Part shown: piece by piece, positions 7,941-26,299 of the stretch
How the letters are laid out: each line of letters opens with the position of its first letter
Position numbering within the stretch: position 1 is the first letter of the stretch
Virus record (IMG/VR): IMGVR_UViG_3300038426_000029
Coordinates: 1 to 64,000 of that record
Reading direction: 5' to 3' (one strand)
DNA: 64,000 bases
Origin: a virus
Taxonomy: Duplodnaviria > Caudoviricetes
Made by a program: the position numbers and the translations under genes
Notes under the pieces: generated by a model
What the model was told of the DNA's origin: nothing
What the model saw: the letters and a program-made list of their open reading frames with translations, nothing else
The model's database searches: none

Positions 7941-7959
7941 AAATAATCACACATAGAAT

Positions 7960-9159: not shown

Positions 9160-9161
9160 TT

Positions 9162-10241
9162 TTACTTATCTCCTTTATAAAGCAATTCATATGCTTTAAC
9201 TTTTCCAGCATCTGCTGTAACATCTACTTTTCTACCTGTAGGGAAACTAGCATATTTAGATGTTGTTATATGTGCATTAAAACGCACAACACCACTAAGT
9301 TTATCTTCTGTACTCCACGTTTCAATAACGATGTCTGTCTGATCCTCAATGATGTCTAACCAGATTGGTTTCTTTGTCCTTTCCTTGGTTACACCATTGA
9401 TTATTATTTCTTCATAATCATACTTAGTGCAGAAGATTACCCCTTTCTTCACAATCATTGCTAGTTTGAGGAATAACTGTTTAGTGTAGAGTCTGCGATC
9501 CTTCCAGAATTGCCACTCAACACCCTGAGTCATTTTTATACCATTACGCCATCTCATAACATTTTCTGCAATTTTCATATACTCTTCCAGACCATCTATT
9601 AAAATCCAATCTGGATAAGCGTCTGGTCCTTGTGACTTAATCATATCCAGAATTGAGAAGATGTATCGGAAGCAAATTTCAGATGATACTAGAGAAGCAT
9701 CTGGGCTTGAGTAATCCATATATTTAATGGCATCATAAATAGTGATTCTTGGGTCGCTGTTAAACATATCAACCCAAGTTGGCACTGTTTTGTGGTCAAA
9801 TGACAGAACATCCATCTTTCCGGGGAAGGAAAGTGCTACTGTCGTTTTTCCTGAGTTTTTACCACCAAAAACAGTGAGATATTTTAGTAGTGTTGGTTTT
9901 TCTGGTTCCATATCATATTCTTTCGGAAATGTTGGTAGTGCTATAATTGGTACGTCTGATGTTTGTTTAAACACATTCATACCACTAGACAAAAGTGGGT
10001 TTGGCACAGGTGCTGGTGGTTTTGGTGCTTCAGGTAGAAGTGAAGATATTCCAGTTAGAGGCTTAGTTTCTTGTGGTGTTGGTGTAGCTTCTGGTGTTTT
10101 TTCGGGTGCTACTTCAGATGTTTTTTCTGGTGTAGTTTCTGGTGGTTTATTTTCCACTGGTTTTGGTTCTGTTATTTGTGGTTGAACAACTGGTGGTTGT
10201 TCATCCTTCTTTTTCACACCAAATAAAGCCTCAAGTGACAT
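9162..10241 (-). CDS. AAA_24/Sak4-like P-loop ATPase with Pro/Glu/Thr-rich N-terminal linker
   Basis: Walker A GGKNSGKT, VLSFD, Walker B ILIDG; adjacent to a putative SSB. Confidence 0.7.
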   Translation of the reverse strand: MSLEALFGVKKKDEQPPVVQPQITEPKPVENKPPETTPEKTSEVAPEKTPEATPTPQETKPLTGISSLLPEAPKPPAPVPNPLLSSGMNVFKQTSDVPIIALPTFPKEYDMEPEKPTLLKYLTVFGGKNSGKTTVALSFPGKMDVLSFDHKTVPTWVDMFNSDPRITIYDAIKYMDYSSPDASLVSSEICFRYIFSILDMIKSQGPDAYPDWILIDGLEEYMKIAENVMRWRNGIKMTQGVEWQFWKDRRLYTKQLFLKLAMIVKKGVIFCTKYDYEEIIINGVTKERTKKPIWLDIIEDQTDIVIETWSTEDKLSGVVRFNAHITTSKYASFPTGRKVDVTADAGKVKAYELLYKGDK

Positions 10242-10246
10242 TTAGT

Positions 10247-11212
10247 TTACCGTTCCTCAAATCCTGACTGAGAGAAGATTGGGACTATAAGACAGACAGC
10301 CATACTTAAAGTTTCTAAGTTTGTTGTGTTATCCCTCTTCTTCGTAATAGGTCCAAGGAAAGCACAATATGTACCATCATCATAGACTGTATTCTCTGGT
10401 GCTACCCAACCAGTTATTCCGGGCATAACAATTCTACCCTGATTATCCTGAGTTGGTTTTTCCTGAACGGTCATGTCGGTTATCTTGATCCTACCAGACA
10501 TTATGTCTGTTGTATCTGGTAAATCCTTTGGCTTCCATGTTATTGGAGAACCAGAAACATAACCGATGATACAACGCCAATCCGTATCAACAACATATCC
10601 TGTTTGTGCTACTGTTTTTGACGGATTATTATATGCCTCTGCAATTGTTACAATTGGAATCTTTAGTTGCTCACATAGAGCATATACATCTAAGTTCGAT
10701 GGCTGTACGGGTCTTACATTTGCCCTATCATCTAAGACAAAATCACCACCCTCAGCAAATCTGCCGAGACTAGCGGTATATATGCTTAGTGGGACAAGCC
10801 CAAGCGGAACATCTGCAAATTTACCATTACCAACCATTCTCTTTATTACCATTTGACCTTCATTAACACCAGCATAGGCATTAATATAAGGTGTTTTTCC
10901 ACCCTTACTAATTTTCTTTCCCTGATGTCCAAGGAAGATAAAGGTAATATCTGTCACAGGTGGTCTTTGGATAAGCATCTGGAAAGCCTTCCCAATTGCA
11001 TATCTCTGTCTCATTTCAAGTAGTCTTTCGGGTGTCGAGCTAGGAAATTGCTTTGTTGCGAATGTTCCTGAAACCTCAAACTCCCTTTGGTACTCCTTGA
11101 TTACAACATCACGACTAATTCCCCACTTTGATACCAGTTGGCTAAACATAGCCTCAACAAAATCTGGATATGTAGGCGGGTGTGCTAATAGTTTTGAATC
11201 TTGTGTACTCAA
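10247..11212 (-). CDS. Putative tandem OB-fold ssDNA-binding protein
   Basis: Beta-rich IIGYV...GRIKITD...CAFLGPI pattern; next to the Sak4-like ATPase; TTG start. Confidence 0.5.
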   Translation of the reverse strand: MSTQDSKLLAHPPTYPDFVEAMFSQLVSKWGISRDVVIKEYQREFEVSGTFATKQFPSSTPERLLEMRQRYAIGKAFQMLIQRPPVTDITFIFLGHQGKKISKGGKTPYINAYAGVNEGQMVIKRMVGNGKFADVPLGLVPLSIYTASLGRFAEGGDFVLDDRANVRPVQPSNLDVYALCEQLKIPIVTIAEAYNNPSKTVAQTGYVVDTDWRCIIGYVSGSPITWKPKDLPDTTDIMSGRIKITDMTVQEKPTQDNQGRIVMPGITGWVAPENTVYDDGTYCAFLGPITKKRDNTTNLETLSMAVCLIVPIFSQSGFEER

Positions 11213-11425
11213 ATTGAGTCTGGGAATGATCCAATAGAAGGGTATATAAACCTTTGTAATATACCATAGATTGCTATGTATTCCAACATTAAAAAAAGAT
11301 TACTGGTAGTATATATACCGATATTGGTTTGGATATTATATCACCTCAAAGGCAAATCGGAGATGCTTCTTGAGGATATGGAGATCAGAATACTTAAATA
11401 CTCTTGTGTATAGGGATAGGTAACT

Positions 11426-12388
11426 ATGTCCGAAAACATAAAACTAGTCGATAAATACAAACCACAACATTGGGAAGATATTGTTGGACAAACTAGGATT
11501 GTTACTCAGGTAAAAGCCATTGTGGATAAAAAAGGACCATACCCACACTTTTTGTTTGTTGGTCCTGCTGGTTCTGGTAAAACTTCTTTAGCAGAAATAT
11601 TTGCTAAAGAAACAGGATATGATGTTCACGAATTTAACGGTTCTGACGATAGAACACTTGTTTTCATTAGAGATAAAATCAAGGCACTTTCACAATTTGC
11701 TGGTAGGAGAATTATTATTCTAGATGAAGCCGATATGTTGATTCAACCAGCACAGATGGCTATGAAGAGGATAATGGAAACCACAGATGCCATATACATA
11801 CTCTGTGCTAATGATGAATTTAAAATTGAGGATGCTATCAAAAGCAGGTGTGCAATTTTCCGTTTCCCAAGGTTGACTGATAGTGTTGTTGAAGCTAAAA
11901 TTGTTGATATTATTAAAAAAGAAGGAATTGGCTTTGTTGATGACGAAAACCAAACTGTTATGAGAGGTCTGGGTACACTTGTCAAAAATGCCAAGGGAGA
12001 TTTACGAACAGCACTCAACGATCTTGAAACTGTTATAGATGTCAATAAACAAATAACACCTGAGTCAATAATGCTTGTTGGTGGAACCACAGGACTTGCT
12101 GTTTTGGCTATGGTTAAAGCACTTGAGGGTGATTTCAACACAGCCAAGGAAATGATCGAAAAGGCATATGTTGAAGGAAAATACGATCCAAGAAATATTT
12201 GTAGGGAGTTATATAGTGCTATACCAAATTTGAATGTTGAGTTAGAAATAAAGATTAGGATGTTCGAGAAGCTGGGAGAAGTTGAACACAACCTAAATGA
12301 TGGTGGTGATCCAATAATTCAATTGGTCACATATATATCTTTTATATGGTTAATCCCACATGCTACGGGTTGCCCACTTCTCAAGTAG
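11426..12388 (+). CDS. rfcS: Replication factor C small subunit
   Basis: DKYKP..WEDIVGQ, HFLFVGPAGSGKT, IIILDEAD, SRC motif. Confidence 0.93.
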   Translation: MSENIKLVDKYKPQHWEDIVGQTRIVTQVKAIVDKKGPYPHFLFVGPAGSGKTSLAEIFAKETGYDVHEFNGSDDRTLVFIRDKIKALSQFAGRRIIILDEADMLIQPAQMAMKRIMETTDAIYILCANDEFKIEDAIKSRCAIFRFPRLTDSVVEAKIVDIIKKEGIGFVDDENQTVMRGLGTLVKNAKGDLRTALNDLETVIDVNKQITPESIMLVGGTTGLAVLAMVKALEGDFNTAKEMIEKAYVEGKYDPRNICRELYSAIPNLNVELEIKIRMFEKLGEVEHNLNDGGDPIIQLVTYISFIWLIPHATGCPLLK

Positions 12389-12397
12389 GTTTAATTT

Positions 12398-12790
12398 ATG
12401 TCCGAATATTGGATTGAAATACACCCAGAAGAACCACAGTATATAATCGTTTCGGATGAAATTATCAATATTCTAAGAAATGCGAAGTTTCCAGAAAAAT
12501 TAGATGTACAGATTATATTAATTGATAAAACAATTACACTCATATTCTATAAATTTACTTCAGATGCTGAGAAAAAAGCAATACTTACAGACAATAAAAT
12601 TACGGGAATTAAATATACAGACATCAGTAAGGTTTATAAGTTGCCGATTAGAGTATTTGTTACCTTTGAACAGAGGGACACATACCAACAAACCAACCTT
12701 GACTTTGACGTTTTTGTGATTGACTTCACGACTGACATAGACAAACCAAAACAGGAAGAGGAAGAAAGTTTAGAAGATGTGTTCAAATGA
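12398..12790 (+). CDS. Hypothetical protein with acidic C-terminus ending SLEDVFK
   Basis: 130 aa in the RFC operon; ATGA-coupled to the nuclease. Confidence 0.65.
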   Translation: MSEYWIEIHPEEPQYIIVSDEIINILRNAKFPEKLDVQIILIDKTITLIFYKFTSDAEKKAILTDNKITGIKYTDISKVYKLPIRVFVTFEQRDTYQQTNLDFDVFVIDFTTDIDKPKQEEEESLEDVFK

Positions 12791-13542
12791 TGTCCACAGT
12801 AAATGAAAAAATGGCTAGTATCACTCAAACCCAGATGAATCTGGATGAAAACTGCCCTCAGAGTTGGTATTATTATCGTAAAAAGTTCCCTAAAATTATT
12901 GGAGATACTAGATATATGCTGGTTGGAACCATAATCCATAATTCCATAGAACAATATTTTAGGACAATTTCAGAAAGCCCACATACTGGACTAATATCTG
13001 GAACATTCAAGACAATTTTAGATAAGAATTGGGAACCACATAATGAAGAACTAAAAGAATTATATAATAGAAAAATAAAATGTACAGAAAACTTCTTAAA
13101 GTTTGAAACAGAACGAATGAAAGTTTGCAATAGATATAGACCATCAATGCAAGAAGAAAAATTAAATGCCAATATTAACGGTGTAGAGTTTTTTACAATT
13201 GTTGATTGTTTCTGGGCTGAAGATGGATTCTTAGTTGATTGGAAAACAGGAAGCAAGAACACTTTAAGTGTACAGGATTACATTCAAGGCATGATTGAAA
13301 AAATGATTCTTGAGGCTAGAGGATATACAGTCAAGAAAGTAGTTTTTGCAATGTTATTCACAGGGCAATATATTGAGATGGGTGTACAACCAGATAATTT
13401 CATTATGGACAGAGCAAACAAAATGATCCGTGAATGGACAACTGGTAACTTCCCAAAAATAAGAGGGCAACAATGTTTATATTGCGGTTGGGATATTAGG
13501 TGTGCCCTTCAAGAGAAGAAAATTAGTCTATGGGAGATATAA
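12787..13542 (+). CDS. Cas4/AddB-like PD-(D/E)xK exonuclease with Fe-S cysteines
   Basis: CPQSWYY, GTIIH, E...VD...LVDWKTG, C-terminal CLYC...RC. Confidence 0.85.
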   Translation: MMSTVNEKMASITQTQMNLDENCPQSWYYYRKKFPKIIGDTRYMLVGTIIHNSIEQYFRTISESPHTGLISGTFKTILDKNWEPHNEELKELYNRKIKCTENFLKFETERMKVCNRYRPSMQEEKLNANINGVEFFTIVDCFWAEDGFLVDWKTGSKNTLSVQDYIQGMIEKMILEARGYTVKKVVFAMLFTGQYIEMGVQPDNFIMDRANKMIREWTTGNFPKIRGQQCLYCGWDIRCALQEKKISLWEI

Positions 13543-13544
13543 AA

Positions 13545-13760
13545 ATGGGTGTATATCATAAATGTGAACATTGTAATAGAACCCTAACAGATATGGATTC
13601 CATGACTGTCGGTTATGGTCCAGTTTGTTATAAAAAGTTATTTGGTATAGCACTAAAAAGAACACAAGCTAACAAAACAAAAACTATATACAAAACAACA
13701 AAAAAGATGAAAGATTTGTTGGAAATGGAGAATTTAGATGAGGTTTTTATAGATGTTTGA
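13545..13760 (+). CDS. DUF6011-like Zn-binding protein
   Basis: CEHCNRTLTD.DS...GYGPVC motif; ATG 13545 follows a GGAG RBS. Confidence 0.75.
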   Translation: MGVYHKCEHCNRTLTDMDSMTVGYGPVCYKKLFGIALKRTQANKTKTIYKTTKKMKDLLEMENLDEVFIDV

Positions 13761-14613
13761 ACCAAAAAAAATTAGTGATTTATTGGGTAATCCAACAGCA
13801 CTTAAAAAATTAGAGGAACAGATCAAAGACGGTGTTCCAACACTTATTGTTGGTCCACCCGGAATTGGTAAAACCACAGGTGTAAATGTTATTGCAAAAG
13901 AGTTAGGATATGAAGTCATGGGGCTTAATGCTAGTGACGATAGACAGGCTGGAACAGATGATGAACCAAGCGAACTTAGAAAGTTGCTTTGGAAATCTCA
14001 AATGAATAGCCCATTTGGTGAGAAATATCTTATATTTTTAGATGAAGTTGATGGTATGGGTAGCACTCAAATGGATGGTGTATCGAGTTGGGATATTGTT
14101 AAGGATATAATTCAAGAAAGCGTTTATCCTGTTATTCTAGCTTGTAACGATGACTATAAGGTTCCAGAAGGCGTACAAAAACTTCTAATAAAAATTGATT
14201 TCAGACAGGTTGATTCCAGAACAGTAACAAAAATTGTACAGAAGTTTGCTAAGGATATGGGTGTTTCACCAGACTTATCAAAAATTGGTGGTGATATTAG
14301 ATCAGGAATTTCCCTTCTTTTTGGTGGTGAAGGTTATGTTCCATCTGGTGATTTCCTATATATTCAGAAGTTTTTTGCTGAAGGAACAGAGATTGAACGA
14401 GAGAAATATCCTTGGATTTTAGATAACATACCTGAATTTTACAAGGGTTATGATATGTATTTGGCATATAAAGTACTATCATTAACCAGATATAGCCCAA
14501 GGGCACTAGATATGCTGAGAAAGGGCAAGATAGGAAGGGTAAAGTTCCCTACTTATTACCTAGTTAGGAAGAAAGATAAAAAGGTGGAGAAAGAGGAAAA
14601 TGGTCAAGTTTAG
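13753..14613 (+). CDS. rfcL: Short replication factor C large subunit-like ATPase
   Basis: PKKISDLLGN, GPPGIGKTT, LNASDDR, IFLDEVDG; only 286 aa. Confidence 0.85.
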   Translation: MFEPKKISDLLGNPTALKKLEEQIKDGVPTLIVGPPGIGKTTGVNVIAKELGYEVMGLNASDDRQAGTDDEPSELRKLLWKSQMNSPFGEKYLIFLDEVDGMGSTQMDGVSSWDIVKDIIQESVYPVILACNDDYKVPEGVQKLLIKIDFRQVDSRTVTKIVQKFAKDMGVSPDLSKIGGDIRSGISLLFGGEGYVPSGDFLYIQKFFAEGTEIEREKYPWILDNIPEFYKGYDMYLAYKVLSLTRYSPRALDMLRKGKIGRVKFPTYYLVRKKDKKVEKEENGQV

Positions 14614-14735
14614 AGATGCGGGTTGCCTTTTAACAGCTATTGTTTTGGGTAATGTATTTTGCGATAATTGTCCTTTTCACCTACTTTTTGGATGCCATAG
14701 TGGTGAATATATAACAGATAAGGTGAAAACAGAAA

Positions 14736-16250
14736 ATGGCTGATATTTCAGAAAAAAACCCGTTTGATATTATTTCATTACCATCAGAGATAGAAAAAGA
14801 AGAGACAATCAAAAAGAGAGAGGGTATTACGGCAACTGGTTTGGTTGGAGAACTTGCAAATTTTATGTCTGATAAAATTCCAACAAGCCCAGATTGGTGT
14901 GAAAATTTGGCGGCTTGTTTGGTTGGGGCAATTGCTGGTTCAACTGAGGATGGAAAAATGAGAGAGATTAGAAATTCTTTTGGACCACTCAGACCTAACA
15001 TATTTACAATTTATATCGGTGCTAGTAGATTAGGATTCAAAACAGTTCCACTTAAAACGGTTGTTAGACCTATGTTAATCAGAGTTACAACCATGTATAA
15101 CAGCAAAGTGTGTTTGGAAAATGGAATAACTGTTGATGAGTTCTATATTAGAAAATCTGGTTTATCAAAGGCAAAAGGAAAAGAAAAAACAACACCAGAA
15201 TGGAAAAAGGAAAAGGAGTTTATTGATAGAATTTCAACACAACTAGTAAATTTTGAAATGCCTGAGAGTTTTACAAGTGAAGCATTAATATCTTGGTTAT
15301 CAACACATCCAATCGGAATGATTGCTTCTGATGAATTCACAAATATGTTCAAGGGAACAACAACAAAAGACTATTTAGCAAATGTTATGGAAGTTCTAAG
15401 TAGGCTTTATGATAGTGAGGTTGAAAAGAAAGCAACAATAGCAAGAGGCATAGAGGATGCAAAGAATATACATGTCTGTTTTGCATCGGCAACCACACCA
15501 TATGTAATGACCCTCATGGATGAATCTTTCTTTTGGCAGGGTACTGGAAATAGAATACTTTGGATTGCTGATGATGAGCTTGATAAGATTGATGTGAAAG
15601 AGGAAGAAAATTTCACGGAGTTTTTCTGGAACCCAGATCAGACACGTGCCTTTGAAAATGAATTTGAGAGACTATCAATCTTATTGGCTGGAATTAAAAA
15701 TTTACCAACAGGGCAACTTTTACTAAGTTTCGGTTCTGCGGCTGAGTTGAACAAATACAGAATTGAGATGTATAATAAAGCAGTTGATCTTTTTGTGACA
15801 GATATAATGGATAAAGATTCAAGTTTCGTTGCTGGTCTTGCTCAAAACGCCATGAAGTTGGCTTTAATTCATTGTATTGGAAGATATGCTATGGATTCTA
15901 GTAGTGGAAACTATACAGGATTCATGGAAATAAATGAGGAAGATTCTGGTTGGGCAATTAAGAAAATGGATAGACATCTCAAATTCTACAAGAAGTTATG
16001 GGATTTATCTTCTAAGGTTAGAAAAACAGAGACAAAGGCACATGTGATAGATCAGGATAGGGTACTTCTGTTGATTGAGAGATTTGAATCAACGGGAAGA
16101 AAACTCACGGCAAATGAGTTACGTAGGAATACAAAATGGGACAGTGAAGAGTGTCAAAAAGTATTGAATACTATGGTACTAAACGAAGATATATATGTGG
16201 TAAATGAGAAAAAATTTACATATTACACAACCATAAATCCAAAAGTTTAG
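14736..16250 (+). CDS. DUF3987/YfjI-type AAA+ putative replicative helicase with probable C-terminal winged helix
   Basis: PNI..IYIGASRLGFKT, SFTSEAL, SDEF, LSRLYD, ASATTP, GTGNRIL motifs. Confidence 0.7.
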   Translation: MADISEKNPFDIISLPSEIEKEETIKKREGITATGLVGELANFMSDKIPTSPDWCENLAACLVGAIAGSTEDGKMREIRNSFGPLRPNIFTIYIGASRLGFKTVPLKTVVRPMLIRVTTMYNSKVCLENGITVDEFYIRKSGLSKAKGKEKTTPEWKKEKEFIDRISTQLVNFEMPESFTSEALISWLSTHPIGMIASDEFTNMFKGTTTKDYLANVMEVLSRLYDSEVEKKATIARGIEDAKNIHVCFASATTPYVMTLMDESFFWQGTGNRILWIADDELDKIDVKEEENFTEFFWNPDQTRAFENEFERLSILLAGIKNLPTGQLLLSFGSAAELNKYRIEMYNKAVDLFVTDIMDKDSSFVAGLAQNAMKLALIHCIGRYAMDSSSGNYTGFMEINEEDSGWAIKKMDRHLKFYKKLWDLSSKVRKTETKAHVIDQDRVLLLIERFESTGRKLTANELRRNTKWDSEECQKVLNTMVLNEDIYVVNEKKFTYYTTINPKV

Positions 16251-16474
16251 TCCTTTTTATCTGGTTGTTTTTCAATTAAATTCCATTCAGAACTATGATC
16301 AGTGGGATTATGCGTTGCCCTACCCTTAGCTAAATAAACTATATTAAAAATCTTACAGTATGGGCACTCAATTTTATCTTCGGCTTCTGAACTTACCCCA
16401 TTTCTCATTAATTTAAAACTATCTGGTGGAATTACCCGCCTACAAGAATAACATATCATTATGTCTGAAAGCAT
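16247..16474 (-). CDS. Zn-ribbon protein
   Basis: CYSC...CPYC. Confidence 0.6.
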   Translation of the reverse strand: MLSDIMICYSCRRVIPPDSFKLMRNGVSSEAEDKIECPYCKIFNIVYLAKGRATHNPTDHSSEWNLIEKQPDKKD

Positions 16475-16625
16475 CGCTGTTTTAATTACCTTAACACATT
16501 ATACATGTATGATAGAATATAAATGTTATGATAAAGTGAAAACAACCATTTTTCTTACCTAATATACCAAATCAAGGCGTGAATATCCACAATCCTTTTA
16601 TACTACATATGTATTTCTATTACAT

Positions 16626-16868
16626 GTGAAAAACATGGAACAAGAACAGAAACCGTTAAGCCTTGGAAAGTTATCCATCCTGATTGATGAGAAAAAACCA
16701 AAGTGCCTCTGTGGAAAACCATTAGAGGGAGTCGGTGTAAACTATTGGGGTCCACATGATAGTGGCATCTACATCGTTGGTGAAAAGGAAAAGCAATGGG
16801 TTTATATCCACTGCAACCACTGTGGATATGACATGGCACTCTGGAAGATTATGAGGGAACTTCAATGA
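16626..16868 (+). CDS. Zn-ribbon hypothetical protein
   Basis: CLCG...CNHCGYD; ATGA-coupled to next gene. Confidence 0.65.
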   Translation: MKNMEQEQKPLSLGKLSILIDEKKPKCLCGKPLEGVGVNYWGPHDSGIYIVGEKEKQWVYIHCNHCGYDMALWKIMRELQ

Positions 16869-17149
16869 CCGTAAAACCCAAGATGCTTCAGTACAACGTA
16901 GACTTCTTTATGAGGGGGATGACACCAGACGATGAGATTATCCCAGATGGATCAACAGTCGGTCACTATACCATAGACAGGACAAGACTTCACCGATGGA
17001 TCGACATGCTCATAGACAGTGGTAAAGTTGATAAGATCGATATTGGTTGGTATGATGCTAGTATAGGCTATGTCAAGAGGGTACAAGATCAGCTTGTTGA
17101 GAGCGAGAAAAACCTTGATGAACTTGAAAACAGAGAAAAGACACAATGA
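16865..17149 (+). CDS. Hypothetical protein
   Basis: 94 aa; coupled at both ends. Confidence 0.65.
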   Translation: MTVKPKMLQYNVDFFMRGMTPDDEIIPDGSTVGHYTIDRTRLHRWIDMLIDSGKVDKIDIGWYDASIGYVKRVQDQLVESEKNLDELENREKTQ

Positions 17150-17340
17150 ACAACAAACAGGCACTTTTTATAATAACACTACTTACAATCATATTTATAT
17201 CTTTTATGGCTTATTTGATATTCCCACTACCAAAACTTATATTTTGGATTTTAGAAATTGCCTTGGTTATTGCCATTCCATTATGTGTACTTGGTATTTC
17301 AGTATTAATATATGAGGAATATACATATCTAGGAGAATAA
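17146..17340 (+). CDS. Small two-helix membrane protein
   Basis: 64 aa, hydrophobic. Confidence 0.6.
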   Translation: MNNKQALFIITLLTIIFISFMAYLIFPLPKLIFWILEIALVIAIPLCVLGISVLIYEEYTYLGE

Positions 17341-17398
17341 AAACACAAACCTTATATAAAGCCCGTAATATTTATAAACAAAAACATATTATATTAAA

Positions 17399-17866
17399 TT
17401 GATTAATATGACATCTGGAAATAAAACACGTTGTGATTTCTGTAATAATGAATTAATAGCTCAACCAAGAGCTAGAAAAGATAAATCGGGTATGTTTTAT
17501 TCAACACGACCCGAATATTATATGCCATATAAATGTCCTTTTTGTGGTGGATATTTCTGCGATAAACATAGATTGCCTGAGAATCATAAATGTAAAAATA
17601 TGCCATCTAGATATAGAAATACAGCATATAAAGAAATGCCATATTATGAAATCCCAACATATACAGATGTTAAAAAAATGTATTTAATAGAGCAAAAAAA
17701 GCCTGTTACAACATTTGACTATAATCCACCACCAAAAGACTACAGTAAACTGGGAAATTCACCAAAACAAACGGTAGCTGATTATATCCCATACTGGAAG
17801 GCAAGCAAAAAACCCAGTTTATTGACAAGAGCTAAAAACAGATTAACAAGAAAGAAAAAAAGATAA
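17399..17866 (+). CDS. AN1-type zinc finger protein with basic tail
   Basis: [22 protein letters not shown]. Confidence 0.8.
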
Positions 17867-17868
17867 AT

Positions 17869-19059
17869 TTAATATTCCTGTATCTGCCCATTAGCTAACT
17901 TTTCACAGTAATCTCCAAGTCCCAGCATTTCATGGTTCACCAGATTGATTATTTCATCTTCTACTACTGTTTTGTGAACCATCAACCCATCGTGTTTTAT
18001 GTATATGATTGTCGGTTCGTTTATTGGTGTTCCAATCCTGCTAACCATCCAGACATAGACGGTACTTATCTGATTTTCCTTGAAATTCTGGTATATCTTA
18101 TCCGCAAGATAGAAACAGAAGTGATTATAGATTTTTCCGATGTGTGAGATTGAATTCTTACCACTTGCCGCCTCAACGCTCATGGGTCTGGACATTGAGA
18201 TCAAACCAACAGGATTGTTACCTCTACCAACTTGACCAGAATCACCAGATTCGGCTGATGTTCCTGTGACGGTGAGATACAAACCATTTATTCCATTATC
18301 ATATCTATCCAATGTATTGAGCCTAATTGTTGGAGTATAATCTGGATAATTCTCTCTACAGAATCTAGCTATTAATCTTGTAATCTCTTCTTTGTCCTTC
18401 CTATAAGCATACATATCTGTGATATATCTATCAATCATAGCCATTGCCACCGTGATGTCTAATTGTTTGCCGTTTCTGATAGTCATTACCTTGATGTCCT
18501 TGCCTGAGCATGGATATTGTTTCTTGAATTCTGGTGTGTTAAGATATTTCTCAAGCCCTATTGTGAGATTTTCTGTCGGTGTGAATGGTGCATACCCTAC
18601 AGCCGCAGATGTGTCGTTGGCTGGTAGAAATTCACCATTTTTAGTTCGTTCAAAAATATCATTGAGATCACCAGAGCCTTCAGCTAGGTATGAAACATAT
18701 TTCGGCATAGGGAACATATCTAAATTTGTCTTAAACCAGTTCTTGATTGTTTGCTCTATAACTGGGTGGATGTCCACTTTCTTCCCATCAATAATAGATG
18801 TTGCTCTATCACCCAAACATATCGTGGCTGGTTTTATGATCTTCCCACCACCAAAGGCTGGTTGTGTTTCACCAGCAAAGAGTGTTGCCTTATCAAAGTT
18901 GTGGTGCTGTTTCCAGTTCTTGAAGTATTCTACAGAGATTGCATCAACGATACTATTTATGATTGTATCTGGATGCCCAAAACCCTTACGTTCAACGATT
19001 TCAACGCTGTCATTTTCAACGTTTGTCACACGTACTGGCTCAATATTTATGTTGACCAT
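17869..19059 (-). CDS. mat: Archaeal-type S-adenosylmethionine synthetase
   Basis: VEIVERKGFGHPDTI, HHNFDK, ANDTS, GKDIKVM, GDSGQVGRGN, EAASGKN..SHIGKIYN. Confidence 0.95.
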   Translation of the reverse strand: MVNINIEPVRVTNVENDSVEIVERKGFGHPDTIINSIVDAISVEYFKNWKQHHNFDKATLFAGETQPAFGGGKIIKPATICLGDRATSIIDGKKVDIHPVIEQTIKNWFKTNLDMFPMPKYVSYLAEGSGDLNDIFERTKNGEFLPANDTSAAVGYAPFTPTENLTIGLEKYLNTPEFKKQYPCSGKDIKVMTIRNGKQLDITVAMAMIDRYITDMYAYRKDKEEITRLIARFCRENYPDYTPTIRLNTLDRYDNGINGLYLTVTGTSAESGDSGQVGRGNNPVGLISMSRPMSVEAASGKNSISHIGKIYNHFCFYLADKIYQNFKENQISTVYVWMVSRIGTPINEPTIIYIKHDGLMVHKTVVEDEIINLVNHEMLGLGDYCEKLANGQIQEY

Positions 19060-19114
19060 ATCGTATATGTATATAGATAATAAATATAAATGTTTGTATG
19101 TCTATGAGGAATAA

Positions 19115-19453
19115 TTATATTAATGTGTCTACATATCTCTGTATCATCTTTGTGTACACCAACATCCTTCTATCATGTCTGGTCTTACCTGTCTTGTAAT
19201 GTTGAAGATAGTGGGCAAATTCATGGGAAACATCACCAGCAATTATTTGCCTATACTTGACATATTGTATCGTGTTAGGATACACGAATTTACAGAACCT
19301 CCTATTTTGTATTTTTATGTTTGGTATAGGGACATGAAATCTCCAACACATAAAATAAGTTAATCCGATTGCCTCTATTTGAGTTATGGGCTGATCATAC
19401 TTTGTGTTAGAAAGTTTATCTCTTTCAGTCCTGTAGTATACAAGACGAGTCAA
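19115..19453 (-). CDS. Small zincin/SprT-like metalloprotein
   Basis: SHEFAHYLQH (HExxH) followed by HD. Confidence 0.6.
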   Translation of the reverse strand: MTRLVYYRTERDKLSNTKYDQPITQIEAIGLTYFMCWRFHVPIPNIKIQNRRFCKFVYPNTIQYVKYRQIIAGDVSHEFAHYLQHYKTGKTRHDRRMLVYTKMIQRYVDTLI

Positions 19454-19638
19454 AGTTTGTCACTCTTGTAGGAACACCTGATACAAACATTATCGAATGT
19501 ATATCCATCAAAGAACCTACAAAGGTTACAGGTCTTTCCTATTAGAACCTGCGTACCTAATTTCGGGCACTCAACCAATGGTATCCGAATAACTTCCAGA
19601 GATTCAAATTTTGGCTTTGGCATGTGTACCATACACAT
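19450..19638 (-). CDS. Small Cys-rich hypothetical protein
   Basis: CPK...CNLC...C; start trimmed to ATG just downstream of TATA at about 19653; track start 19827 overlaps the GT gene. Confidence 0.45.
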   Translation of the reverse strand: MCMVHMPKPKFESLEVIRIPLVECPKLGTQVLIGKTCNLCRFFDGYTFDNVCIRCSYKSDKL

Positions 19639-19670
19639 AGATACATATCTCTTATATAAATCTTCCGAAC

Positions 19671-20630
19671 CTAAGAATCTTGTATAATGGCTTTTATATA
19701 TCCAATTCCGAAATAAAAGCCAAGAATGATAGCAACTCTTAGTACTGTATAATTGTGATGGTTCTTTAAATCTACACTCATAATTGTAAAAATTAAGCCC
19801 CAGCTTCCAAAGAAAGCACCAATACAATCAATCAGTGGTCTTGTTCCAATAAAATACGGTATGAAGAAAAACACAGGACTTAGAAGAATTAATAATGATG
19901 GCAGAGAACGGGATGGAAGATAGAAATGTTTTACCCTCAACATCCTACCCCAACTCCAACCATAGCCAAAAATTTGCTTTTGGAATTGTTTTATTGTCTT
20001 TCTTTCGTGATGTATTACTGGTGAGTTTGGGACACCTAATAATCTATATCCTCTCTTACGTAGTCTATAATTCATCTCATAGTCTTCTGCACCACCAATA
20101 TCCTCATTAAATCCATCAACATCTGCTATTGCTTTTGTTCTATATACACTGTTATATCCGGGTAGGCTATTGACATATGTGAAATCATCATATTTTTGCG
20201 AGTGATTAGAAGCAAGTTTCATTACAGAATTTATTGCTTGTGAAAGTTCTGAGGAAGCGTCTGGTACACAACCAGAAGATATTCCTGCAATTGGCATTTC
20301 ACCAAAATTGTTTAGATCAGAAAACATCTCTTCCATATCATCTGCCCAAGTGTGTGGAACTTCCGTATCGCTGTCTAGGAAGGCAACAAGATCGGATGTA
20401 ACGTGCATGAGTCCTTGATTACAGGCAACTGCACGTTTACTTCCCTTTCCAAGAGACTTGGGTTCATCATAGATTTCACAGCCATATTTTTTGGCAATTT
20501 CCAGAGTTTTATCAGTTGAACAACCATCAACAATTATGATCCTGACAGGAATGGTTTGTTGTCTCAGTGATTTGAGACAGACTTCAAGTGTTCCTTCAGA
20601 ATTTTTTGTGGGTATAATTACATCAATCAT
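19671..20630 (-). CDS. Family 2 glycosyltransferase with C-terminal TM helices
   Basis: VIIPTKN, IIIVDGCSTD, FLDSD (DxD), GFNE...AEDYEM. Confidence 0.92.
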   Translation of the reverse strand: MIDVIIPTKNSEGTLEVCLKSLRQQTIPVRIIIVDGCSTDKTLEIAKKYGCEIYDEPKSLGKGSKRAVACNQGLMHVTSDLVAFLDSDTEVPHTWADDMEEMFSDLNNFGEMPIAGISSGCVPDASSELSQAINSVMKLASNHSQKYDDFTYVNSLPGYNSVYRTKAIADVDGFNEDIGGAEDYEMNYRLRKRGYRLLGVPNSPVIHHERKTIKQFQKQIFGYGWSWGRMLRVKHFYLPSRSLPSLLILLSPVFFFIPYFIGTRPLIDCIGAFFGSWGLIFTIMSVDLKNHHNYTVLRVAIILGFYFGIGYIKAIIQDS

Positions 20631-20631
20631 T

Positions 20632-20820
20632 TTAATCAGTCACATCTGGTGTTATCATAAAAGCCGCACAACCAAAGCCAAAAGAAATTTGTACTATAAT
20701 AACCGAATTAACTAATATACCAGCCATAACACCAATTGCTGAAATAATAGTTGTTTTAATTATCCATTGATACCATTTCATCACAAATACACCAACAACT
20801 TTGGTATGAATATTATACAT
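20632..20820 (-). CDS. Small membrane protein
   Basis: 62 aa, hydrophobic; true start probably later. Confidence 0.4.
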   Translation of the reverse strand: MYNIHTKVVGVFVMKWYQWIIKTTIISAIGVMAGILVNSVIIVQISFGFGCAAFMITPDVTD

Positions 20821-21128
20821 CCCACGAAGAATGTAAATATTGTGAATAGTAAAACAGCACCAGAACTAATATCCTTAATAATTTTTATTTGTGGATTGGG
20901 ATTTGGATCAATCATGTTGCATATTGCTTCTACGCAAGTATTCATCATTTCTAGTGCCATTAACATAGATGAACATATAAGAACAGCTATCCATTCCATT
21001 GGAGATGCACCAAACATAAAACACATAATAAATGTAATGGTTGTAAACGTAAGCAATAATAGTAGTTTGCTATTCACCAATGCTAACAATATTCCGTTTA
21101 ATCCGTATTTGAACATACAATACTCCAC
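20781..21128 (-). CDS. dgkA: DgkA-family diacylglycerol/undecaprenol kinase
   Basis: LEMMNTCVEAICN and IKIIKDISSGAVL signature; three TM helices. Confidence 0.88.
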   Translation of the reverse strand: MEYCMFKYGLNGILLALVNSKLLLLLTFTTITFIMCFMFGASPMEWIAVLICSSMLMALEMMNTCVEAICNMIDPNPNPQIKIIKDISSGAVLLFTIFTFFVGCIIFIPKLLVYL

Positions 21129-21511
21129 CAGTTTTTAAGTCTATATATTAAAGACAGAGACATAACACCATTATAATGATTAAATATTATATCCAAAAAA
21201 ATATGTATGAAATATCCAGCACCAAAATAAACAATATATTGATTATGAATAAAAAACATCAAACCAATAACAATTAACATAAATTCATAACTATGAAGAG
21301 GCAATATATAATGTGGTCTATCTGCAAGACCATCTGAGAGTTCTCTAAGTGAATATGTTGGTTTCCTATACCTGAGATAATAATCGAAACAATGATCAAA
21401 ATCTATCAACACACCACCAATAAAGAATGGAATTAAAAGATATAGATTATCCTTCGGTGCAAAGAATAGGAAAATTGCTATTATGATTATTGCATGGTGT
21501 GAGAAGTACAA
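21098..21511 (-). CDS. Membrane metal-dependent hydrolase (YdjM/DUF457-like)
   Basis: SHH...GGVLIDFDH...LHSY...GYFIHIFLD conserved His/Asp pattern. Confidence 0.65.
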   Translation of the reverse strand: MYFSHHAIIIIAIFLFFAPKDNLYLLIPFFIGGVLIDFDHCFDYYLRYRKPTYSLRELSDGLADRPHYILPLHSYEFMLIVIGLMFFIHNQYIVYFGAGYFIHIFLDIIFNHYNGVMSLSLIYRLKNWWSIVCSNTD

Positions 21512-21516
21512 ATAAG

Positions 21517-22380
21517 TTATACACCCTTCATAATTTCCATAGTTAGTGTAATGCCCATTTCCAAATCGTGAAGTGGCACAAACCCAAGTTTCACAATTTT
21601 ATCTATATTGTACCAAGACCTTTTTAGATCAAAAGCAGACATCTCATATGGAACAAAAACTATTTTAGCATCCGTTTGTCTGGATATAATTTCTGCAACA
21701 TCAAGCACACTTGACTCAACACCTGTACCAATATTGTATGTTTCACCACGTATGCCATCTTCTAACACAAGTTGAAGCCCATCAAGGGCATCATCTATGT
21801 AGATCATATCCCTTGTTTGCTTACCATCACCATAAACTGTGAGAGGTTCACCTTTTAATGCCTTGTTGATGAAAATGTTTACTGGTCCCTCAGTTCTATT
21901 CGGTCCATAGACACTACTGAAACGGATAATCCTTGCATTTACATTCTTCGTAATAACCCATTTTCTTAGGTATTGTTCTGCGGCATACTTGGATATTCCA
22001 TAGTTGCTGACAGGTATACACATTGAATATTCTGAGTGTGGTACATTTGAAAGTCCATAAACAGCACCAGAAGAGGTGTAGACCATCGGAATATCTGTAC
22101 CTTCCAAACATTTTAGAAGGTTGATCATCCCAAACTCGTTTATCTTTATGTCCATTTCTGGATTTTGTTCTCCGGGTTTGAGAAAGGCTTGGGCACAAAT
22201 ATGATAGACCTGATCTGGATCAAATTTATAAAAAACATCCATCAACCTATCACCATCTGTGATGTCATATCTTTCATCGTGTTTTATGTCGTAATTAAAG
22301 ACATCGTGACCTTGGCTCTTTAGTCTTTCGACTAGAGCATTTCCTACAAATCCAGAACCGCCTGTTACAAGTATTCTCAA
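21517..22380 (-). CDS. NAD-dependent nucleotide-sugar epimerase/dehydratase
   Basis: RILVTGGSGFVG, SSGAVYG, YGISK (YxxxK); TTG start at 22380 overlaps upstream TGA. Confidence 0.92.
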   Translation of the reverse strand: MRILVTGGSGFVGNALVERLKSQGHDVFNYDIKHDERYDITDGDRLMDVFYKFDPDQVYHICAQAFLKPGEQNPEMDIKINEFGMINLLKCLEGTDIPMVYTSSGAVYGLSNVPHSEYSMCIPVSNYGISKYAAEQYLRKWVITKNVNARIIRFSSVYGPNRTEGPVNIFINKALKGEPLTVYGDGKQTRDMIYIDDALDGLQLVLEDGIRGETYNIGTGVESSVLDVAEIISRQTDAKIVFVPYEMSAFDLKRSWYNIDKIVKLGFVPLHDLEMGITLTMEIMKGV

Positions 22381-23177
22381 TATATTTTCATCCTCACTTT
22401 TAATGCAACTTCCTCTGCCACAGGACAGGAACATGCATACTTTTTATAATATTTGTTTTGGTAAACCGTCTTTGGATAGTAACCATCCTTTGGACTGAGC
22501 ATACCCAATTCAGATTCGATAGCTATTTTGTGTAAACGCAAGTTTGTCAGACCTATGAAGGCACATAACCTTGGCATCTTGTAGTTGTAGCCTTCCATGA
22601 CTTTTTCACCGTTCTCATCGAATCCATGATTGCGAATCATTCTAGCTTTTTTATCTATGTCAGGATCGTCTGTAACCAAAGCACCACCCTCAAATGTCCA
22701 CAGGTTTTTTGAGGCATAAAAACTGAATGTGCCAACATCACCAATTGAACCTGCCCTTCTACCATCCTTGACTTTTGCACCAAAGGCTTGAGAGGCATCT
22801 TCAATGAACTTCACGGCTGAGTTGTCACAAATCTTCCTGATTTCGAGAAGGTTTTCTGTATTACCAAAGAGATCGACATTGAGAATCGTGCTAATACGAT
22901 TGTTTTCTTCCAGCTTTTTCTGTACAAGTTCTGGATCAAGACATAGAGTTTTTCTATCTATATCAACGAATATAGGCTTTCTACCTATCTGAAGAATTGG
23001 GTCAACGGTTGCTATGAATGTAAAGGGTGTGGTTATTACATCTGCCCAAGTGTCAGATGCAATTAAAGCAGTATGAATGGCAGATGTTCCATTTGAAACA
23101 GCAACGACATATTTAGTACCAATATATTTGGCAATCTCTTCCTCAAATAGCTTGATAACGTCATCAAACTCGTTCAA
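22377..23177 (-). CDS. DegT/DnrJ/EryC1/StrS PLP-dependent sugar aminotransferase
   Basis: VAVSNGTSAIH, TPFTFIAT, IEDASQAFGA, FSFYASKN..TFEGG, GYNYKM. Confidence 0.93.
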   Translation of the reverse strand: MNEFDDVIKLFEEEIAKYIGTKYVVAVSNGTSAIHTALIASDTWADVITTPFTFIATVDPILQIGRKPIFVDIDRKTLCLDPELVQKKLEENNRISTILNVDLFGNTENLLEIRKICDNSAVKFIEDASQAFGAKVKDGRRAGSIGDVGTFSFYASKNLWTFEGGALVTDDPDIDKKARMIRNHGFDENGEKVMEGYNYKMPRLCAFIGLTNLRLHKIAIESELGMLSPKDGYYPKTVYQNKYYKKYACSCPVAEEVALKVRMKIY

Positions 23178-23614
23178 TGTGATTCCTCATATATTTTCTT
23201 TTTAGCAAAGTATTTATTAATATCATATTTATATTTTGCTGGATTTCCAAAGTAAACCCCCTTATTATAGAGGGATTTTGTGACAACAGCAGACCCACCA
23301 ACAACAATTCCACTGGAAACTCTTATACCCGGAAATATTGTGCAACTACCGCCAAGTACAACATCATCTTCAATTGTTGGGGGTAAATTCTTACTACTTG
23401 GTGGATATTTGTCATTTAAGAATGTAACGTTTGGACCGATAAAAACCCTGTTACCAATTTTAGTTCCGTTTGGTATTGATACTCTACATTGAATGTTGCA
23501 ATCTTCACCAATCTCAACATCTGTACCGATGTCACAAAAAGCACCGATTTTTGTTCCCTTTCCTATAGATTTTGCCCTATTCACCGTTGGCTCATAGATA
23601 ATAGGATCAGACAT
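23174..23614 (-). CDS. Hexapeptide-repeat N-acetyltransferase (WbpD/WlbB-like)
   Basis: IGKGTKIG, VFIGPNVTFLNDKYP, VTKS...GNPA. Confidence 0.9.
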   Translation of the reverse strand: MSDPIIYEPTVNRAKSIGKGTKIGAFCDIGTDVEIGEDCNIQCRVSIPNGTKIGNRVFIGPNVTFLNDKYPPSSKNLPPTIEDDVVLGGSCTIFPGIRVSSGIVVGGSAVVTKSLYNKGVYFGNPAKYKYDINKYFAKKKIYEESH

Positions 23615-23740
23615 TGATTTACACCAATATTACGTTGTGGTTGATTTATAAATGTTATGGACACCGAAACACTTATAAACTCTCCTAAAAACAGTTCTGT
23701 GGGAATCCCCGTCTAAACGGAATCCTAAAGGTAAAACAAA

Positions 23741-24079
23741 ATGTCAAATAACGATTTTGATTTTCCATATTTCTCTGAAATTATGGATAATGAAGAAACA
23801 AAGGTATATGATGAGGTTTGCAAGTTGCCAACACTCAAACTTTTTGAAGAGTTTGACAAGACTATGGAAAATAGTGAGAACATCAAAAACAGAACTAGAT
23901 ATGATGTTATCAGAGGTGTGATAGCTGATAGGTTGGGACTTTTCCACAGGGATGTTGCTGGTCCTGCCATTGCTGGTGAAATAGCTGAGGCTAATGATAA
24001 AATAGAAGAGTTAGATCGTAAGTTCAAAAACCACAGACATGATACATCCAAGTCCTATTCAGGCAAATCAGAGTGGTGA
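23741..24079 (+). CDS. Hypothetical coiled-coil protein
   Basis: 112 aa, opposite strand within the glycan cluster; AAGGT RBS. Confidence 0.65.
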   Translation: MSNNDFDFPYFSEIMDNEETKVYDEVCKLPTLKLFEEFDKTMENSENIKNRTRYDVIRGVIADRLGLFHRDVAGPAIAGEIAEANDKIEELDRKFKNHRHDTSKSYSGKSEW

Positions 24080-24250: not shown

Positions 24251-24841
24251 TCACCACCTGTGCATTATTGATACATTTACACTTCTCTGATGCTCAAAAA
24301 CGTTTTTGCCAACAAATCCATTAGCTATGAATTTATCAACAAGATACCCAGTATGAACCTCTATCACACATGGTGTGTGGTAATTTTTGAGTATGTCACC
24401 ATCAAGTAAACCGCCCTCATAACCTTCTATGTCCATCTCCATAAAATGGTGGGGTATTGAGAGCATATCAACTGAAAATGGTTTGCCTATAACGATGATG
24501 GGGTGAGTTTGGGCATTTTCTTTGAGGTATTTTAATGCAACAGGTTCCATTTCGACAGCTATTACCTGTTTAGCACCAAGTTCTTCTATATAGAATTTGG
24601 AAGTTTCTCCACACCCTGCACCAACATTTAGAACAGTTTTGCCAACTAGGGAAAATGGAGGTTTATAAAGTTTTCTCCATACAGGAAGTTCCCTATAATA
24701 TAAATTCTCGAATTCTGGTGAAAAAGACCAGCCTTTCAAACTAGACCTGCGGAACAACATCTTCCAAGGTATGGGTTGCCCATATGCAGTAAGATGAAGG
24801 GGCAATCCTGTATATTTAATTCCTAATTTATTTGTTTTCAT
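24251..24841 (-). CDS. FkbM-like class I SAM methyltransferase
   Basis: VLNVGAGCG, VIAVEMEP, MDIEGYE. Confidence 0.8.
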   Translation of the reverse strand: MKTNKLGIKYTGLPLHLTAYGQPIPWKMLFRRSSLKGWSFSPEFENLYYRELPVWRKLYKPPFSLVGKTVLNVGAGCGETSKFYIEELGAKQVIAVEMEPVALKYLKENAQTHPIIVIGKPFSVDMLSIPHHFMEMDIEGYEGGLLDGDILKNYHTPCVIEVHTGYLVDKFIANGFVGKNVFEHQRSVNVSIMHRW

Positions 24842-24965: not shown

Positions 24966-25667
24966 TTATTCTTTTTTACAGACAATTACTTTGTCATAAC
25001 AGAATTCGGTTAAGAACCTATTTTTATATGTCTTGTTTTCTACCTTATTATATAGGGATGTACTCACTTTTATTATATTATCAGGTCTTGAATTTTTTCC
25101 GAATATGGCTTTGTAAAATATAGAAAGTAGTCTAGGTATAAAATTTAGGTTATATCCATATAATTGTTCTATTTTGAATTTATTTAGCATACTTTTAGCT
25201 TGTGTGTTTGTATAATAGTGTGTTTTTTGGTTATATTCTGAATATTGTGATTGTAAGTTATTGGTATAAGTATTGATTTTTAATAAATTTTCAAGGTCTA
25301 TCAATAGTCTGTAGGCAGATAATGATGATTGAAAACTAATCACCAAAAATGAGCCTTTTTTTAAGACTCTGTAAAATTCATCAATCGCTTTTTGATCTTT
25401 TTCAACATATCCAATAACCAAAATACAGAAAACAAAATCAAATGTATTGTCTCTAAATGGCAAATTTTCTATAGAAGACTGTATAAAAGGTATATTTTCA
25501 ATATCTTTTGGCACTAAAACATCAACTGGAATAACGGAATAACCCATATTCATCAGATATTTTGTATATTTTAAATCACCAGCACCAGCATCCAGAATAA
25601 TATCTGAAGATTTTGCTAATTCTAACAGTTTCTTTAATGATGGATTTCCTATAATATTAATCAACAC
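24966..25667 (-). CDS. Class I SAM methyltransferase (Methyltransf_11)
   Basis: ILDAGAG, IENLPFRDNTFDFV, RVLKKG. Confidence 0.88.
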   Translation of the reverse strand: MLINIIGNPSLKKLLELAKSSDIILDAGAGDLKYTKYLMNMGYSVIPVDVLVPKDIENIPFIQSSIENLPFRDNTFDFVFCILVIGYVEKDQKAIDEFYRVLKKGSFLVISFQSSLSAYRLLIDLENLLKINTYTNNLQSQYSEYNQKTHYYTNTQAKSMLNKFKIEQLYGYNLNFIPRLLSIFYKAIFGKNSRPDNIIKVSTSLYNKVENKTYKNRFLTEFCYDKVIVCKKE

Positions 25668-26299
25668 CTTAATTTATTTACTTTCCATGCAATAATAGTT
25701 CTTAATATACTTTTATTGTGTGGTTTAAAAAAGTTTATAATGGTCATAACACTAGATACAATCATATACTCTAAACCACTCCAATAAATCCTGTTTATTA
25801 TCTTTGTATTAAAACCAAGTTTCTTAAAGTCTGTATCATACCATATAGATTTGTGATAATCAATAACATCATCACCCACTCTCGATAATGTATTACCATA
25901 TGGACATACAAATATAACAAGTTTGGCTTTATCTCTAAGATATTCAATCATTTTTAATACTTTTTCTTTATCCTCAATATGTTCTATAACTTCTGTACAT
26001 ATTATAATATCTAAATCTTTTATGATATTCTCTGGATATGGTATATTTATGGCATCATATAGATATACCTCTCTGATAAATGGCATCCACTTTTTTGCAA
26101 AATCTACATTGATTGGGTCTACATCTATACCAACAATATATGGTTCTCCACTAATTTTCTGGTTTCGATTTGCAAAAGACACTATTGTATGTGAAATCTG
26201 CCCACAACCAAAGCCAATATCCAGAATACGTGCCCCCTGAATATTTGCTGGTAATAAGTCAAGAATCGAATCTATATCGTGAAATGTACCATGTGCCAT
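25661..26299 (-). CDS. Class I SAM methyltransferase
   Basis: ILDIGFGCG, VGID, DIIICTEVIEHIE. Confidence 0.85.
   Translation of the reverse strand: MAHGTFHDIDSILDLLPANIQGARILDIGFGCGQISHTIVSFANRNQKISGEPYIVGIDVDPINVDFAKKWMPFIREVYLYDAINIPYPENIIKDLDIIICTEVIEHIEDKEKVLKMIEYLRDKAKLVIFVCPYGNTLSRVGDDVIDYHKSIWYDTDFKKLGFNTKIINRIYWSGLEYMIVSSVMTIINFFKPHNKSILRTIIAWKVNKLRC

Follow-up and report, generated by a model that had tools for sequence, protein, structure and literature searches.

An archaeal-type methionine adenosyltransferase (MAT), or S-adenosylmethionine (SAM) synthetase, was identified in the IMG/VR virus record IMGVR_UViG_3300038426_000029, of which positions 1 to 64,000 were analyzed. This 64-kb stretch is referred to as the window; the ~102-kb contig extends about 38 kb beyond it. 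The gene is predicted to encode a working enzyme, groups by its sequence with an element-specific clade of MATs, and follows a glycan-biosynthesis island rich in SAM-dependent enzymes. With moderate confidence, it is read as a general supplier of SAM to the element, with glycan methylation as the main sink in this case.

17869-19059, minus strand: archaeal-type methionine adenosyltransferase (SAM synthetase), 396 aa, assigned by PF01941, PDB matches, active-site residues, and dN/dS

The open reading frame (ORF) starts with ATG and was aligned to PF01941 (AdoMet_Synthase), its residues 3-391 covering profile positions 2-394 of 395 (E 1.7e-124). Its score of 416 bits against a curated cut-off of 27 makes it a full-length member of the family, and the solved archaeal MATs 4L4Q, 6S81, 4HPV, and 7P82 were matched with E-values of about 1e-75 to 1e-78. 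Nine active-site residues were named for TkMAT by Schlesier et al. (PMC3853416), with His33 as the catalytic residue. His62, Asn64, and Asn161 bind the carboxylate of methionine, Asp144 and Leu145 belong to the gating loop, binding of the ribose and the amine falls to Asp201 and Asp283, and Tyr271 stacks on the adenine (PMC3853416). When the residue numbers were transferred to the window MAT via a HMMER alignment, all nine were found to be kept: H33, H62, N64, D144, and L145 correspond to H29, H52, N54, D131, and L132, while N161, D201, Y271, and D283 correspond to N148, D188, Y261, and D273. The catalytic H29 lies within GFGHPDT (GHPD motif) and was invariant across two alignments. The kept residues include the methionine-binding ones that are specific to archaeal MATs (H52, N54, N148, D273, and L132) as well as those that bind adenosine (Y261, D188, and D131). 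A full-length archaeal MAT with intact motifs, as reported in the preliminary description of this DNA, is borne out by the end-to-end PF01941 match and the nine TkMAT residues.

Compared with the 77% identical MAT of the related contig L001, dN was 0.144 and dS 0.90, and the resulting dN/dS of 0.16 indicates that the gene is under purifying selection. At 38.9%, its GC content is close to the 34.6% of the window. The score of the protein stayed below every NCBIfam equivalog cut-off, so that orthology with a characterised cellular group was not indicated, and the profile scores place it as a family member outside the curated cellular groups. The best explanation is a working MAT, with the predicted activity of converting ATP and L-methionine into SAM, pyrophosphate, and phosphate.

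The linkage of the MAT gene to the element is genuine and no misassembly is involved. The stretch from 16500 to 21500 was present in 24 peat/wetland sequencing runs from 2017-2021 at 93-100% of sampled words; some of the runs may be the source sample of the window. Logan contigs from four of these runs, with sizes including 102,087 and 43,916 nt, spanned positions 14000-24000, both junctions included, with 0 differences. The order DAGK-GT2-113-aa ORF-MAT with a convergent zf-AN1 gene downstream recurred in the relatives L001-L004 (MAT 77% identical), and the upstream part of this order was kept in L100 and L101 (71-73%). It was also kept on the 60-kb contig with the sequence P0009 (63%), where a glycan island encoding two methyltransferases precedes the MAT. 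Overall, the same gene order occurred on at least five related contigs from other samples, and no related element without a MAT was recovered. Because the contigs of four runs agree and the gene order recurs in diverged relatives, the MAT is part of the element rather than mis-joined to it, and the joining of host DNA by misassembly, which had been raised earlier as a concern, is ruled out. In L101, a 259-aa ORF resembling the NUMOD3-like ORF at window position 40240 is inserted between the GT2 gene and the small ORF (1396-2172); it looks like the insertion of a mobile endonuclease.

Trees were computed with IQ-TREE (LG+C20, quick search) for a 99-row and a 50-row archaea-only alignment. The window MAT fell within a clade that had an SH-aLRT support of 100 and comprised ten sequences, of which the thinned tree contained eight. 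This clade was joined by P0010, P0011, and P0024 at a support of 99, giving a group of 13 sequences. The stem of this group measured 0.36-0.42 substitutions per site. Identities to the window MAT ranged down to 63% within the clade and were about 49% to the three sister sequences, while the best cellular sequences, from Bathyarchaeia and Brockarchaeota, reached at most 48-49%. Full-length identities to cellular MATs in general were 45-49%. Bathyarchaeia and Brockarchaeota genomes carry a MAT of their own, 40-48% identical, in a housekeeping context, so that in a probable host of this kind the element-borne copy would be a supplementary one. Cellular MATs were found next to SRP54, Pus10, and L21e. 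All 13 clade members are located on gene-dense virus-like contigs, on which homing endonucleases, eS30, radical SAM genes, and small ORFs of unknown kind occur. At residues 50-52 of the window MAT, the core ten share a deletion of 6 aa immediately before the HHN motif. Judged by these sequences, the clade is element-specific and has long been separate from cellular MATs. Its distance from the latter implies either that the capture from cells is old or that the gene is fast-evolving. The donor host, which the preliminary description proposed to look for with a phylogeny, did not emerge, as neither quick tree resolved a cellular sister or donor among the archaeal lineages.

Gene neighborhoods of the more distant clade members were varied. 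In L092 (679-2093) and L105 (about 1040-2420), the gene of ribosomal protein eS30 overlaps the MAT start by 4 nt in an apparent two-gene operon. Downstream of the MAT, L092 carries an NrdG-like radical SAM activase at a distance of 0.5 kb; an HNH-AP2 endonuclease was found in L105. DruA, YunG, and small ORFs occurred on the contigs of L091 and L106, and another small radical SAM gene lies near the MAT in L104 and on the P0009 contig. Small radical SAM genes were considered as a single conserved partner of the MAT and rejected, as those of L104 and L092 (NrdG-like) showed no BLASTP similarity. The MAT of the IMG/VR locus L007 was likewise rejected as a viral gene; it is located beside an integrase and cellular-type regulators and probably belongs to the host flank of a provirus.

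The glycan island, its STT3/AglB-like transferase, and the enzymes expected to consume SAM in the island and at the far end of the window are as follows:

19671-43744, minus strand: glycan-biosynthesis island (Pfam scans)
24251-24841, minus strand: class I methyltransferase, FkbM-like, weak match (TIGR01444, 34.9 bits against a cut-off of 37.7; Pfam methyltransferase models, E about 1e-4)
24966-25667, minus strand: class I SAM methyltransferase (PF08241, E 1e-16)
25661-26299, minus strand: class I SAM methyltransferase (PF13847, E 4.7e-7)
28891-29556, minus strand: class I SAM methyltransferase (PF08241, E 1e-7)
29583-31154, minus strand: STT3/AglB-like oligosaccharyltransferase (PF02516, E 9e-11)
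31120-31764, minus strand: class I SAM methyltransferase (PF13489, E 6e-14)
31761-32477, minus strand: class I SAM methyltransferase, Methyltransf_24 (PF13578, E 1.1e-20)
33184-34539, minus strand: putative B12-binding (class B) radical SAM enzyme, HpnJ-like (PF04055, TIGR03471)
62975-63463, plus strand: phage-type Dam DNA adenine methyltransferase (PF05869, E 5e-28; TIGR01712, phage N6A methylase, E 6e-23)

The island extends over ~24 kb on the same strand as the MAT. Besides the methyltransferases, it encodes three GT2 glycosyltransferases, two SDR epimerase/dehydratases, a DegT aminotransferase, two hexapeptide acyltransferases, a UDP-GlcNAc 2-epimerase (WecB), the STT3/AglB-like transferase, a DgkA-type kinase, and heptose-pathway genes, as well as transaldolase, SIS, GHMP-kinase, and phosphatase genes. 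Five of the six class I methyltransferases scored above a Pfam cut-off, the copy at 24251 being the one below. The radical SAM enzyme passed the cut-off of PF04055 (E 2e-7, 31.8 bits against 29.5) and matched HpnJ (TIGR03471) over residues 20-390, including the B12-binding N-terminal part, at an E-value of 5e-56 that nevertheless corresponds to a score far below the equivalog cut-off; the Pfam B12-binding model alone gave a weak match (E 0.05). In total, at least eight SAM-dependent enzymes are encoded in the window. The co-oriented island with six class I methyltransferases and a B12 radical SAM enzyme that had been described before was therefore recovered in its count, with a weaker assignment of the 24251 copy and of the B12 domain, and the DNA methyltransferase said to be in the window corresponds to the Dam gene. 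The island is a mosaic, and its SDR/DegT/acetyltransferase cassette (window 21517-23614) is swapped in L001 (1303-3995) and L002 for other genes including WbqC and PIG-L. Both flanks of the swap remain collinear in the 77% relative L001.

The immediate surroundings of the MAT contain the following features:

17399-17866, plus strand: zf-AN1 protein, convergent with the MAT (PF01428, E 2.9e-11)
19077-19090, minus strand: TATA-like box tttatatttattat (read from the sequence)
19115-19453, minus strand: conserved 112-aa ORF with an HExxH motif (conservation; without family match)
19671-20630, minus strand: GT2 glycosyltransferase, final enzyme in the glycan island (PF00535, E 8e-23)
20781-21128, minus strand: DgkA-type lipid kinase (PF01219, E 2.1e-23)

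The TATA-like box is located 18-31 nt upstream of the MAT start codon and is a possible promoter of its own for the gene, which would give a near-leaderless mRNA, while a run of T after the stop codon may act as the terminator. Placement of the MAT at the end of the island, as claimed before, holds with respect to the strand. Direct abutment does not, since the MAT is kept apart from the last GT2 of the island by the 112-aa ORF and a 55-nt spacer with the TATA-like box. This small ORF, which had no Pfam or NCBIfam match, always occurred between the GT2 and the MAT. Its identity was 85% to the L001/L002 copy and 49% to those of L100/L101, and compared with L001 it was better conserved than the MAT itself (77%). 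The GT2 at 19671 was 73% identical to its counterpart in L001, and the DgkA-type kinase was kept in L001, L002, L004, and L101. On the other side, the stop codons of the zf-AN1 gene and the MAT are 2 nt apart, and a zf-AN1 gene also neighbors the MAT in L001 and L003. A 26-nt motif ending in CCTTATATAA occurred twice in the window with two mismatches (0 expected by chance), at 17334-17359 on the plus strand and at 50695-50720 on the minus strand. As these copies precede the zf-AN1 gene and a NUMOD3 gene, respectively, the motif probably serves both as a promoter element.

The carrying element has a size of at least about 102 kb and occurs in peat/wetland soils. Its replication genes in the window comprise RFC-S, a short RFC-L-like ATPase, a RecB-like nuclease, and primase-like proteins. 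They are arranged in a module at 6981-16250, in which a primase-like gene, RFC-S, a 130-aa ORF, the RecB-like nuclease, the short RFC-L-like ATPase, and a 504-aa primase-like protein were observed. The best viral matches of RFC-S (30% identity) and of the primase at 6981-7940 (23% over 96%) were the tailed haloarchaeal viruses HVTV-1, HCTV-1, and HCTV-5 (~102 kb), whose replication modules the window module resembles, and the order RFC-S, small gene(s), RecB, RFC-L is shared with HVTV-1. To cellular RFC-S, taken from five archaeal genomes of different lineages, the identity of the window RFC-S was only 33-36%. The window also holds three NUMOD3 homing-endonuclease-like genes, the phage-type Dam, and, at 61107-61817, a weak, sub-threshold Pfam match to the phage-integrase (tyrosine recombinase) family. 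For an ATPase at 59785-60879, the closest clusters in the ESM Atlas were labelled 83-100% viral, which is taken as a lead only. Neither a tRNA nor any Rfam family, and so no rRNA, was detected in the 64-kb window, and no ribosomal protein family was found among its scanned ORFs. On contigs of the relatives, small orphan ORFs formed long runs, and a gene similar to T4 endonuclease V was present. The element is probably a virus or virus-derived. More specifically, it is read as a large and possibly tailed archaeal virus whose structural genes would lie beyond the window; this reading follows from the HVTV-1-like replication module, the NUMOD3 genes, the phage-type Dam, the lack of rRNA and tRNA, and the orphan ORFs. 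A Borg-like element was also considered and dropped, as few tandem repeats were found and the MAT was not close to that of Methanoperedens.

Members of Bathyarchaeia are probably the hosts, based on three indirect lines of evidence: matches of a 1420-aa protein encoded in the window, the origin of the closest cellular MATs (Brockarchaeota and Bathyarchaeia), and the peat habitat. Large-protein matches to the N-terminal ~200 aa of the 1420-aa protein were found in 14 of 401 Bathyarchaeia genomes, and in none of 301 Halobacteriota and 201 Nitrososphaeria genomes. The protein (45312-49574, minus strand) has a signal peptide and six C-terminal membrane helices, and its 21 N-x-S/T sequons were no excess over shuffled sequences. 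It is a candidate glycosylated surface protein. Like a 1160-aa protein of the window, it had no PHROGs or Pfam match. Elsewhere, a 163-aa ORF (4616-5107, minus strand) resembles a dCMP/cytidine deaminase in having a HAEQNA motif with cysteines close by.

In the proposed mechanism, the MAT would be an auxiliary gene of the large archaeal virus, or virus-like element, and the TATA-box promoter of its own would probably drive its expression in infection. With this enzyme, the SAM pool on which the many SAM-dependent enzymes of the element draw would be increased or maintained. The adjacent glycan island with its six methyltransferases and one HpnJ-like radical SAM enzyme would be the largest foreseeable sink, because one SAM is spent per methyl group on every sugar unit made, and DNA methylation by Dam would be a further one. 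That SAM is limiting during infection, and which of these sinks matters most, we infer. The conserved position of the MAT at the end of the island on the same strand fits a coordinated use. A general supply of SAM is preferred over a glycan-specific one as fitting the data better, because across the sub-families the MAT adjoins varied SAM users, the common thread being a virus-borne MAT beside some SAM user. The earlier proposal that the virus boosts SAM for heavy glycan methylation is thereby kept in one part, as a bona fide MAT does occur on a virus-like element rich in SAM users. Glycan methylation as the specific reason is not upheld, as the distant relatives differ in context.

Several observations weigh against this reading or narrow it. 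The GT2-small ORF-MAT synteny is confined to fairly close relatives and therefore counts as one inherited arrangement, while in distant relatives the MAT is found beside other genes (eS30 and the NrdG-like activase). No family match to a capsid, portal, or terminase was obtained in the 64-kb window with PHROGs and Pfam, so that the support for its viral nature is indirect. The ORFs scanned in the window yielded no SAH (S-adenosylhomocysteine)-recycling enzyme, and heavy methylation would therefore still depend on the host. Concerning the enzyme itself, the best NCBIfam model, NF003363, scored 421.9 bits against an equivalog cut-off of 557. In addition, an Asp that is present in 99% of 82 cellular MATs (D39 of TkMAT) is an Asn in all 13 element-borne sequences (residue 35 of the window MAT, four residues past the GHPD motif), and this clade-wide change makes altered properties of the MAT possible. 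Finally, none of the sequencing runs listed for the stretch was an RNA dataset.

Three other explanations were weighed against general SAM supply. The MAT could mainly serve DNA modification or anti-restriction by feeding Dam and other DNA methylases instead of glycan methylation. Such a role is suggested by the phage-type Dam in the window and by an unrelated tailed virus, L009, in which a DNA N6/N4 methylase and PolB flank a short PF01941 gene. Here, however, Dam is 44 kb away from the MAT, while six methyltransferases and the radical SAM enzyme are encoded within 16 kb on the same strand, and DNA methylation would need far less SAM than a stoichiometric methylation of sugars, which makes this explanation unlikely. 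Quite improbable, too, is that the stretch is cellular, whether it comes from the chromosome of an archaeon with a small genome or is a genomic island of the host, with the MAT as the housekeeping enzyme of that cell. Cellular-type genes (RFC-S, RFC-L, MAT, and AglB-like) do occur in the window, no capsid gene was seen there, and the element was not found in the IMG/VR pattern scans. Yet the window is free of tRNA, rRNA, and other Rfam matches and, among its scanned ORFs, of ribosomal protein families; its RFC-S is equidistant (33-36%) from five archaeal genomes, and the replication module matches that of a halovirus in content and partly in order. Several NUMOD3 genes, the phage-type Dam, and the runs of small orphan ORFs in the relatives also speak against a cellular origin, as does the MAT, which falls below every equivalog cut-off, whereas genuine cellular MATs are found among SRP54, Pus10, and L21e.

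A re-tooled PF01941 paralogue that makes another adenosyl compound for the glycan pathway would agree with the score below the equivalog cut-offs, the Asp-to-Asn change, and the 6-aa deletion before HHN in the core clade. It is considered highly improbable given that the residues for the carboxylate (H52, N54, and N148), the amine (D273), and the side chain (L132) of methionine, as well as the catalytic His29, are all kept, and that the full-length identity to cellular MATs amounts to 45-49%. Beyond general SAM supply, a broader picture can be drawn only tentatively and appears rather doubtful at present. The MAT would be an old gene that defines the lineage of an as yet undescribed family of ~100-kb peat/wetland archaeal viruses, probably infecting Bathyarchaeia, that combines a SAM synthetase, eS30, and a self-contained N-glycosylation, with the Asp-to-Asn change and the loop deletion marking an escape from host control, e.g., from product inhibition.

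Compared with the cellular archaeal enzymes (TkMAT 4L4Q, PfMAT 6S81, SsMAT 4HPV, and MjMAT 7P82), the window MAT is alike in fold family, length, and the nine active-site residues. It differs in its identity of at most 49%, its separate element-only clade, its virus-like instead of housekeeping context, the Asn in place of the 99% Asp, and the 6-aa deletion of its core clade. Bacterial-type metK (K00789) has repeatedly been listed among abundant phage auxiliary genes, e.g., in anaerobic digesters (PMC13644194), and MetK appears in a list of auxiliary metabolic genes of archaeal proviruses that are >70% identical to host genes (bioRxiv 10.1101/2025.11.27.691053). These are, like the window MAT, virus-carried SAM-making enzymes presumed to sustain methylation during infection. 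They were, however, listed without an analysis of clade or context, whereas the window MAT is far from cellular MATs, kept across an element family, and located by a methylation-rich glycan island.

Archaeal-type MAT homologues on viral contigs also occur in the IMG/VR tailed virus UViG_3300005613_000171 (L009) and its relative L008. In L009 (344-4419), the homologue of ~300 aa has truncated ends and lies between the DNA N6/N4 methylase and PolB, on a contig with a weak terminase-domain match. Unlike the window MAT, to which they are 30-33% identical, these homologues sit on a very long branch, and that of L009 is tied to DNA methylation instead of glycan genes; by sequence, L009 is a separate, very divergent viral lineage of PF01941. 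The SAMase (SAM lyase) of phage T3 destroys SAM, blocks MetK, and disables SAM-dependent defence (bioRxiv 10.1101/2023.02.27.530186). It likewise manipulates the SAM pool of the host, but in the opposite direction, as the window element would add SAM-making capacity. PF01941 MATs on extrachromosomal replicons are further known from haloarchaeal and bacterial megaplasmids (e.g., Natribaculum and Salinigranum), which are at most 37% identical and, among those listed, are located on replicons of about 0.27-0.86 Mb that are not virus-like elements.

Viral examples of the family are rare, as had been assumed. The MAT had 0 matches in 50,697 GenBank phage records, where the 504-aa primase-like protein had none either, and a pattern-limited IMG/VR scan for PF01941 returned four distant loci only. 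Pattern scans of IMG/VR that took the MAT, the ATPase, or the 1160-aa protein as their single query sequence yielded no close relatives. No paper on a virus-specific clade of archaeal-type MAT, or on its link to glycosylation islands, was found in a literature search that left most subscription journals outside.

The MAT is a known kind of viral helper gene in a new lineage and involves no new mechanism. The gain is modest, as its function is as expected and the link to glycan methylation is one that we infer. Archaeal MATs are used to make SAM analogues, and the element-borne enzyme may interest biocatalysis groups. A conserved clade of archaeal-type MAT that is found only on mobile elements is apparently undescribed, and the gene provides a simple marker for a family of large peat archaeal viruses that was seemingly missed by standard virus detection. 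Its presence on these elements suggests that the supply of SAM may be a limitation for archaeal viruses with a heavy investment in methylated glycans, radical SAM chemistry, and DNA methylation.

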